DNA of 10,672 bases, from the IMG/VR virus record IMGVR_UViG_2630968808_000002, positions 1-10,672 of that record, one strand, 5' to 3'. The DNA comes from a virus. Taxonomy: Duplodnaviria > Heunggongvirae > Uroviricota > Caudoviricetes. Below, piece after piece: positions 648 to 10,672 of the stretch. Each line of letters starts with the position of its first letter. Within the stretch, counting starts at the first letter, position 1. The position numbers were made by a program, and so were the translations under genes. The notes beneath the pieces are model-generated. The model was not told the origin of the DNA, made no database searches, and saw nothing but the letters and a program-made list of their open reading frames with translations.

Positions 648-885
<238 letters not shown>

Positions 886-898
886 GCTTGTCTCCAGA

Positions 899-922
899 TA
901 AAAAAGGGAGCCGAAGCTCCCT
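899..922 (-). terminator. Rho-independent terminator-like hairpin with U-tract directly downstream of the coat gene
   Basis: On the minus strand: AGGGAGC-TTCG-GCTCCCT (6-7 bp GC-rich stem, 4-nt loop, forward 905-922) followed by TTTTTT (forward 905-900). It starts 8 nt after the coat TGA. Confidence 0.55.
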
Positions 923-9932: not shown

Positions 9933-10239
9933 CTTCTACTCCGGCTTTTTTAGCAGCGAAGCGTTTGATAAGCGAACCAATCGAGTCAGTACCGATGTAG
10001 CCGATAAACACGCTCGTTATATAAGCGAGATTGCTACTTAGTCCGGCGAAGTCGAGAAGGTCACGAATGAACCAGGCGATAATGGCGCACATCGTTGCGT
10101 CGATTACTGTTTTTGTAAACGCACCGCCATTATATCTGCCGCGAAGGTACGCCATTGCAAACGCAAGGATTGCCCCGATGCCTTGTTCCTTTGCCGCGAG
10201 AATGGCGGCTAACAGGTCATGTTTTTCTGGCATCTTCAT
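9916..10239 (-). CDS. S: Holin / antiholin, lambda S-type class I holin with dual start Met1-Lys2-Met3 (107 and 105 aa forms)
   Basis: ATG AAG ATG at 10239-10231. Translation [62 protein letters not shown]... is recognisable as lambda S, with three transmembrane segments and a charged C-terminus. Overlaps the R start. Confidence 0.96.
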
Positions 10240-10244
10240 GTCTT

Positions 10245-10261
10245 ACCCCCAATAAGGGGAT
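10245..10261 (-). promoter_or_regulatory. Stem-loop immediately upstream of the S start codons (lambda sdi-like translational control structure)
   Basis: On the minus strand: ATCCCC-TTATT-GGGGGT (inverted repeat CCCC/GGGG at forward 10247-10250 and 10256-10259) ending 5 nt before ATGAAGATG. In lambda the equivalent structure sets the S107:S105 initiation ratio. Function here is inferred by analogy. Confidence 0.4.
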
Positions 10262-10672
10262 TTGCTCTATTTAATTAGGAATAAGGTCGATTACTGATAG
10301 AACAAATCCAGGCTACTGTGTTTAGTAATCAGATTTGTTCGTGACCGATATGCACGGGCAAAACGGCAGGAGGTTGTTAGCGCAACCTCATGCCACCCGC
10401 TTTCACGAAGGTCATGTGTAGAAGGCCGCAGCGTAACTATCACCGATGAATTCATGATAGCCAGTGGCTACGGCTCAGTTTGGGTTGTGGCGGCCGGAAT
10501 CGAACCGGCTTCCATTGGTGCGCTGCCGATTGCAGTACGCGCGGCGGTCAGCTACATGACTAGTATTTTCACTATCGCCTATCTGCTAGCTCGCCATTGA
10601 GCTTCACCACAACGATAAGAGCACTGCGCGGCACCTTTCACCAATTCCGCGAGGTCTGCGGGTTCAATGCTC

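Follow-up and report, generated by a model that had tools for sequence, protein, structure and literature searches.

Stem-loops directly behind the major capsid gene are an already known, ordinary element of lambdoid phages. The record of phage P22 (BK000583) lists, directly after gene 5, a 'stem_loop 6102..6119; putative; similar in location to stem-loops in phage HK97 and phage lambda', and the record of phage L annotates the same junction as 'terminator'. The P22 hairpin is AGGGGC-UGCG-GCCCCU followed by UUCUUUAUGGAG, and those of L and BTP1 are AGGGGC-UUCG-GCCCCU followed by UUCUUAUUUGAGG. In all three phages, the coat stop codon is followed by a short spacer, a tetraloop hairpin, a U-rich tract, the Shine–Dalgarno sequence (SD) of a small ORF and gene 4, all within the same late operon. 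The lambda hairpin between E and Fi, AUGGCCC-UUCG-GGGCCAU UGUUUCUCU, likewise lies directly past the major capsid gene, 13 nt before the next SD, in a Q-antiterminated late operon. A literature search on the post-coat hairpin in P22, HK97 or lambda, and on RNA-seq of P22 infection, found nothing specific.

Two kinds of better characterized element resemble such a hairpin. Canonical intrinsic terminators, for example lambda tR2 and T7 Tφ after gene 10, consist of a GC stem with a tetraloop and a 7–8-nt U-tract, on the sense strand past a highly expressed gene. mRNA-stabilizing hairpins (the malE-malF REP, Rhodobacter pufBA-LMX, papBA and the f1 gene VIII region) are stable hairpins after a gene whose product is needed in excess and go along with a higher steady-state level of the proximal message; elements of this type generally have no U-tract or are repeated in the genome. 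Lambdoid late operons are switched on by Q (PMC2629481), and RNA polymerase (RNAP) loaded with Q is termination-deficient: Q forms a nozzle on the RNA-exit channel, which precludes terminator hairpins (PMC9388147, PMC6606751). Termination can also be repressed by the ribosome. In a reporter system, the in vivo efficiency of tR2 fell from ~90% to <10% when the stop codon was moved from 28 to 5 nt upstream, as the terminating ribosome blocks folding of the hairpin (PMC4824070).

The coat-gene junction and its operon

The window analyzed here is a stretch of 10,672 nt from a tailed-phage record (IMGVR_UViG_2630968808_000002), and all of its long ORFs and genes are on the minus strand (Table 1). 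According to PHROG and Pfam matches, the order of transcription is S-R-Rz, three small ORFs, terminases, portal, scaffold, coat, an ORF with EP repeats (EP-repeat ORF) and gp4, the start of the gp4 gene overlapping the end of the EP-repeat ORF. The coat protein is 73% identical in amino acid sequence to P22 gp5. The junction region is 93–97% identical to those of the E. coli Lederbergvirus phages APC_JM3.2, Dewey, IME10, Louie and HZ41, and the end of the coat gene is ~75% identical to those of P22, L, BTP1 and ST64T. Because of these gene assignments and identities, the window is identified as the late operon of a P22-like E. coli phage or prophage.

Table 1. Genes of the late operon and elements of the coat-gene junction, in order of transcription
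Feature	Position	Strand	Remarks
Lambda-like S-R-Rz lysis cassette	10239-9022	minus	
Small terminase	7281-6793	minus	
Large terminase	6815-5316	minus	
Portal	5315-3150	minus	
Scaffold	3136-2225	minus	
Coat (major capsid), 431 aa	2225-930	minus	PHROG head protein, E 9e-153; Pfam P22_CoatProtein PF11651, E 2.8e-166
Coat stop TGA and in-frame TAA, in tandem	932-930 and 929-927	minus	Direct reading
5′ arm: AGA (weak extension) and GGGAGC core	924-922 and 921-916	minus	
UUCG tetraloop closed by C-G (hyperstable C(UUCG)G motif)	915-912	minus	
3′ arm: GCUCCC core and UUU able to pair with AGA	911-906 and 905-903	minus	
U-tract UUUUUUAU, 7/8 U	905-898	minus	U6 run at 905-900; predicted site of terminated or trimmed 3′ ends
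SD GGAG of EP-repeat ORF	895-892	minus	6 nt before ATG; 10 nt after last stem C
ATG of EP-repeat ORF	885-883	minus	
EP-repeat ORF, 86 aa, first gene behind the hairpin	885-625	minus	PHROG 1175, E 2.7e-36
gp4, head completion / tail adaptor	650-147	minus	PHROG 637; Pfam P22_Tail-4 PF11650, E 1e-58

Read directly on the minus strand, the junction is GCG UGA UAA CC AGA GGGAGC UUCG GCUCCC UUUUUU AUCU GGAG ACAAGC AUG. The core stem (921-916 : 911-906) has 6 bp, five GC and one AU, and can be extended to 9 bp (924-903) by A-U, G·U and A-U pairs. The 5′ arm begins 5–8 nt past the coat stop, the GC core lying exactly 8 nt after the TGA, and the U-tract directly abuts the last C of the stem. In its GC stem and tetraloop, its U-tract and its sense-strand position 3′ of the stop codon of a highly expressed gene, the element is like the canonical intrinsic terminators, and its dimensions fall within their usual ranges (stem of ~5–14 bp, loop of 3–8 nt, U-tract of ~7–9 nt that starts 0–2 nt from the stem). 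The initial annotation had described at 899-922 a GC stem with a tetraloop and six U residues, 8 nt past the coat stop, and a ribosome-binding site adjoining the U-tract; direct reading agrees on each point (7 bp of the stem fall within 899-922, and the SD starts 4 nt after the U run), to which it should be added that the whole element is on the minus strand. Its placement of the site between the coat gene and the EP-repeat ORF with gp4 stands as well, given the Pfam matches, and relatives retain the hairpin at this junction.

The predicted folding energy is −10.8 kcal/mol for the 6-bp core and −14.4 kcal/mol for the extended stem (z = −3.1 and −3.8, respectively), and a built-in terminator scanner ranks the site first, with nine pairs, five of them GC, and a 4-nt loop. 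A stricter scan of both strands of the window, demanding a core ΔG of at most −9.5 kcal/mol and at least six T among the 8 nt after the stem, returned this hairpin as the sole match on either strand. In 100 dinucleotide-preserving shuffles such matches occurred at 0.03 per window, and none was as good as the post-coat hairpin, which is not a product of chance.

Several additional properties were considered for this structure and rejected. The two-strand annotation in the phage L record implies a bidirectional terminator; here the tail on the plus strand is CUCUGGUU, a poor U-tract, and the hairpin is therefore expected to work in one direction only. An outer helix between the stop-codon region and part of the next SD appears in the minimum-free-energy fold of 66 nt; this helix has a frequency of 0.06 in the ensemble, and P22 and L lack the complementarity. 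RNase III sites need a stem longer than 9 bp, and the 9-bp stem is too short for one. At gathering thresholds the hairpin matches no Rfam family; the best scores, 14–16 bits against family cut-offs of 52–111, fall on the terminator ends of unrelated sRNAs.

The hairpin is a member of the post-capsid-gene stem-loop class recorded in the P22 annotation: the major capsid gene precedes it and a small ORF follows, in a late operon whose Q context is read from relatives. Its order of elements is that of P22, L and BTP1, and it shares the UUCG loop with the latter two. It differs from the P22 and L elements in its stem (GGGAGC/GCUCCC versus (A)GGGGC/GCCCC(U)), in its uninterrupted U-tract (UUUUUUAU versus UUUCUUUA), in the TGA-TAA tandem stop and in the downstream ORF, an EP-repeat version of 86 aa in place of orf69 or orf186. 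These differences are minor. The likeness to lambda is one of position, since neither the capsid gene nor the stem of lambda can be aligned with that of the window. In the records of close E. coli phages that were inspected, the hairpin carries no annotation; the present assignment confirms the classical punctuation of the lambdoid late operon in the E. coli lineage of P22-like prophages. The scientific weight of the hairpin itself is little. In practice, the C(UUCG)G hairpin and U-tract, ~10 nt from an SD, make up a compact natural part for P22-like capsid expression cassettes.

The coat gene of the window ends with tandem stops, UGA UAA (932-927), whereas those of P22 and L have one UAA. Such doubled stops are characteristic of genes expressed at very high levels.

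Conservation of the hairpin and of its U-tract

The set of P22-type coat loci comprised 13 prophages (from Escherichia, Shigella, Citrobacter, Buttiauxella, Tatumella, Pantoea, Providencia, Kluyvera and one further enterobacterium), 80 IMG/VR contigs and three phage records (P22, L and APC_JM3.2). All 96 have a GGGGC or GGGAGC stem, a tetraloop that is nearly always UUCG, a T-rich tract and the SD of the next gene, and the layout of hairpin, U-tract and SD among these ~96 loci includes Salmonella. The spacer between stop and stem ranges from 4 to 20 nt and is not alignable; the distance from stem to SD is 7–14 nt, mostly 9–10, in nearly all relatives. Sf6/CUS-3-type phages, whose coat protein is ~25% identical, have UGGGGC-UUCG-GCCCCA UUUUUAUU in 79 of 80 loci, the remaining one having a stem mismatch. 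A hairpin with a U-tract is found at the coat junction of ~180 loci from more than nine genera, and most of the distant phages that share the P22 coat fold have one too. Among distant phages, stems and loops vary: Pseudomonas AH02 has GGGGCC-GAAA-GGCCCC, Kosakonia Kc166B has GGGGCC-GUCU-GGCCCC followed by U7, and Sortsne and Proteus phage Brookers have post-coat hairpins too. Among the distant phages with a P22 coat fold that were checked, Ralstonia RSK1 is without the layout, its coat gene overlapping the next gene. The UUCG loop is kept in most lineages, lambda and the Sf6 type included.

Covariation was examined in an alignment of 28 distinct variants, anchored on the loop of hairpins that had been searched for, so that pairing is partly built in. 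With this anchoring, 97% of cells are paired and three of the six pairs have changed on both sides. The third pair outward from the loop (columns 7-16) is G-C, A-U or G·U, and the outermost of the six counted pairs (columns 4-19) is G-C, A-U or U-A. The observed covariation was reached in none of 500 shuffles, and only 38–67% of cells were paired in slid controls. A G·U intermediate in a Providencia prophage (L014) links the GGGAGC/GCUCCC stem to the GGGGC type. With the caveat of its anchoring on hairpins, the alignment points to a homologous hairpin maintained by compensatory change, and the presence of a hairpin in each short intergenic gap is the independent evidence. Among single changes within closely related sets, the four loop bases had changed four times (UUUG, UUAG, UUCU and UACG) and the ~12 core stem bases once (in L177).

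The U-tract coincides exactly with a mosaic joint (window 898-911, minus strand) in one group of E. coli prophages (L021, L027, L033 and L082): identity is 98–99% over the 300 nt upstream and ~33% right after GCUCCCUUUU, past which a different downstream ORF, of 195 aa, follows. The hairpin is useful as an annotation landmark for the end of the coat gene and is a frequent joint between phage modules. The abrupt fall in identity exactly at the U-tract speaks for a reading in which the element is no RNA signal, but either a palindrome that arose by chance or a linker at the DNA level, where mosaic modules recombine. This reading is very improbable, in view of the expectation of 0.03 such sites per window, the compensatory stem changes and the lineage-specific stems and loops at the same position; the strand-specific U-tract points to a constraint at the RNA level, and a conserved element would attract homologous exchange as a side effect.

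The U-tract was compared across 21 lineages. T makes up a fraction of 0.79 of the 8 nt on the 3′ side of the stem, versus 0.33 of the 5′ spacer, and in 19 lineages at least three of the first four positions after the stem are U. This T-richness, specific to the 3′ side, argues for selection for a terminator-type U-tract and not merely for a stable hairpin. It bears on the proposal of a pure RNA-stability element, in which Q-loaded RNAP would wholly ignore the hairpin and, once an endonuclease has cut the transcript in the AU-rich spacer, the hairpin would block 3′→5′ exonucleases and prolong the life of the scaffold-coat message in the manner of the malE-malF REP and puf elements. The hairpin is indeed better conserved than the U-tract, poor tracts following intact stems in Pantoea (AUUCUCAC), lambda (AUUGUUUC, which makes the lambda copy less terminator-like than that of the window) and Tatumella (UUUUCGUG). 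The C(UUCG)G cap is kept across deep divergence, the mechanism of Q precludes terminator hairpins in the exit channel, and the transcript profile of BTP1, described below, has a scaffold-coat 'bump' rather than a simple staircase. An exonuclease barrier, however, needs no U-tract, and a terminator is favored over a bare exonuclease block because the T-richness is confined to the 3′ side; unlike such stabilizers in general, the hairpin is found just once in the window and its U-tract is conserved. Moreover, terminated transcripts would be stabilized by the same hairpin, so that the two roles are compatible. Stability as the only role is unlikely.

Proposed termination and read-through in the late operon

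The hairpin differs from canonical terminators in its setting: it lies inside an operon with essential distal genes, the polymerase is antiterminated, and a stop codon lies within reach of the ribosome. Q and pR′ are outside the window, and the Q context is read from relatives. Positions 10672-10230 are 97–98% identical to a segment of HK75/CUS-3 that starts ~20 nt past the annotated Q-pR′-tR′ module, and in Dewey and IME10, which have the identical hairpin, Q is immediately upstream of S-R-Rz. On this basis, the operon would be transcribed by Q-loaded, termination-resistant polymerase. The gap between stop and stem is 4–20 nt in 21 of 21 lineages, inside the repressible range of the tR2 type; since Q-loaded RNAP is fast, its coupling to the ribosome may be loosened, which would weaken the argument from the ribosome. 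With an antiterminated polymerase and a ribosome within reach, the hairpin is expected to be much leakier than its sequence suggests, and a site that scores as a strong terminator should not be taken for an efficient stop when the operon around it is Q-antiterminated and a stop codon lies within a ribosome footprint of it. Gene order leads in the same direction. A promoter scan downstream of the hairpin found no promoter-like site in the window, and the distal genes (gp4, gp10, gp26 and the injection genes) are essential, so that substantial read-through is required.

A second terminator-like hairpin is present at 8848-8829 (minus strand): AGCCUCGC-AUUC-GCGGGGUU followed by UUUAUUCCC, with a folding energy of −11.7 kcal/mol and a z of −3.2. 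It lies between Rz and the ORF at 8801-8322, within the late operon and upstream of every head gene, and late transcription must therefore pass terminator-like sites anyway.

Transcript levels across a homologous hairpin are available for BTP1 as gene-level TPM in 17 conditions (supplementary table of Owen et al., 2020; PMC7067206); the late-gene signal there comes from a spontaneously induced subpopulation of ~0.2%, and TPM are low. The ratio of orf186 to coat, the two genes flanking the hairpin, has a median of 0.59 and is below 1 in 16 of the 17 conditions; in the eight most induced conditions it is 0.56. The eleven genes upstream of the hairpin have TPM of 16–33 and the eight downstream 6–14. 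A fit with a single change point places the break anywhere from coat|orf186 through gp4|gp10, these positions being indistinguishable. The message level increases by +0.59 log2 between portal and scaffold and changes by −0.83 log2 between coat and orf186, the rise roughly mirroring the fall. A drop of −0.90 log2, ~2-fold, is also seen from gp10 to gp26 across a 3-nt gap without a hairpin (L097 8823-8827), and may be an effect of differential decay or mapping. Because this drop is as large with no hairpin, the step at the coat gene is not proven to be caused by the hairpin. The whole profile looks like an extra scaffold-coat RNA species on top of a slowly declining read-through transcript. The BTP1 U-tract (UUUCUUAU) is weaker than that of the window (UUUUUUAU), and given the stronger tract the copy in the window may terminate more than that of BTP1.

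How much of head-protein stoichiometry could such a step explain? The P22 virion contains 415 copies of coat and 12 of gp4, a ratio of ~35-fold, for which an mRNA step of ~2-fold is too small. Portal and terminase are needed in few copies per P22 virion, and their genes lie upstream of the hairpin, which is therefore not a device that separates high-copy from low-copy products. On both grounds the claim of the initial annotation that the hairpin sets stoichiometry is not supported. Its description as a strong terminator is supported in part: every sequence feature of an intrinsic terminator is there, whereas the Q context, the nearby stop codon and the ~0.56× step in BTP1 speak against the strength. 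An efficient terminator, which would halt most late transcription after coat and so yield hundreds of coat proteins and a handful of completion proteins, accords with the energies of the core and extended stems, with the UUCG loop and the seven U of eight, with conservation of the U-tract and with the fact that every BTP1 gene downstream of the homologous site is lower than every gene upstream. It is nevertheless improbable for an antiterminated operon with low-copy portal and terminase genes before the site, essential genes and no promoter found past it, and a step in BTP1 of only ~0.56×, all the more as the hairpin begins 5–8 nt from the stop codon, a distance at which tR2 is <10% efficient.

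The element might instead be a safety terminator for unmodified RNAP only, catching polymerases that escape tR′ or start at internal or spurious promoters in the lysogen, so that distal expression would be strictly Q-dependent and the injection and tail genes silent. The hairpin at 8848-8829, with its U-rich tail upstream of all head genes, would fit such a system, as would the four coding-strand transcription start sites (TSSs) reported within the capsid gene cluster of BTP1 (Owen et al., PMC7067206). The supplement for BTP1 lists neither coordinates for TSSs nor any ncRNA whose end coincides with that of coat at the 3′ side. Against an exclusive safety role, the BTP1 signal comes from induced cells and the step is at the site nonetheless; the position after the major capsid gene in many unrelated phages would also be left unexplained. 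We doubt it about as much as we doubt the efficient terminator.

We think it reasonably probable that the hairpin is a leaky intrinsic terminator and, at the same time, a 3′-end cap for the scaffold-coat message, with a step of ~2-fold. The module is the form that the P22-like and lambdoid post-capsid hairpin takes in the E. coli lineage, made up of a 6–9-bp GC stem, a C(UUCG)G cap, a U-tract and an SD. Most late transcription would come from Q-loaded RNAP, resistant to hairpin-dependent termination, and the ribosome finishing coat would cover the 5′ arm, 5–8 nt from the stop codon; most polymerases would then read through into the EP-repeat ORF, gp4 and beyond. A minority would terminate in the U-tract, including RNAP not modified by Q that started at internal promoters or in the lysogen, which the hairpin would stop efficiently. 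The 3′ ends, arising either by termination or by cleavage in the AU-rich spacer and trimming by 3′ exonucleases, would be capped by the very stable hairpin. The net effect would be a ~2-fold step of the scaffold-coat message over that of the distal head-completion and injection genes, translation efficiency or initiation strength presumably supplying the rest of the stoichiometry.

A further possibility, which we raise tentatively, is that the hairpin forms the 3′ boundary of a discrete, long-lived scaffold-coat RNA, a sub-operon unit nested over the read-through transcript. Such an RNA would originate near the portal/scaffold junction, by internal initiation or by processing. The distance at which the ribosome translating coat trails RNAP might gate the yield of this RNA, because the stem is within ribosome reach of the stop in all lineages compared. 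The rise at scaffold and the fall after coat in BTP1 hint at this arrangement. If real, the nested unit would boost the two bulk head proteins and no others.

The ORF behind the hairpin and the front of the operon

The EP-repeat ORF (625-885) belongs to a modular family that follows the coat gene in all P22-like phages and even in Pseudomonas AH02. GTG 933 was considered as an alternative start and rejected: ATG 885 is preceded by an SD, and the N-terminus that it specifies is conserved, aligning with those of P22 orf69, L orf186 and Sf6-type homologues. Comparison of eight loci (L001, L002, L006, L009, L013, L103, L183 and L187) gives a conserved N-terminus of ~45 aa, M..M.Y/F..G...K.WG...V....HL..GW..HP, followed by a linker that is acidic or made of EP and varies in length, in some members by a WDGH domain (PF25311; E 2e-40 in phage L orf186), and at the C-terminus by a basic tail. 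For the N-terminal module there is no Pfam family. In the Sf101 record, the homologue of the EP-repeat ORF is annotated as a virion structural protein. The EP dipeptides of the window are encoded by a (GAGCCA)n repeat (690-735, minus strand), whose copy number differs between near-identical phages: the aligned segment is 671–707 bp in relatives and 701 bp in the query, and APC_JM3.2 annotates a repeat_region. In Proteus phage Brookers (L187 1992-2246), the annotated start of gp6 is upstream of the hairpin, so that the coding sequence spans it; an SD-preceded ATG past the U-tract, aligned with the starts of homologues, is more likely to be the true start.

At the front of the operon, the leader of the holin gene (10230-10489) matches lambda 44936-45195 at 96.5% identity, and the lysis cassette resembles lambda S/R/Rz; the front end of the late operon is therefore a lambda-type module joined to P22-type head genes. 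A search of the window with ARAGORN found no tRNA gene. A 3′ fragment resembling tRNA or tmRNA, with a perfect T-arm (GCCGG-UUCGAUU-CCGGC), is present at 10482-10560 (minus strand); it scores 11 bits (E 0.013) with the Rfam tmRNA family, against a gathering cut-off of 47, and ARAGORN calls no gene there. At the equivalent position, between Q and the lysis genes, tRNA genes are present in BTP1 and in other P22-like phages, and the fragment may be the remnant of such a tRNA gene.
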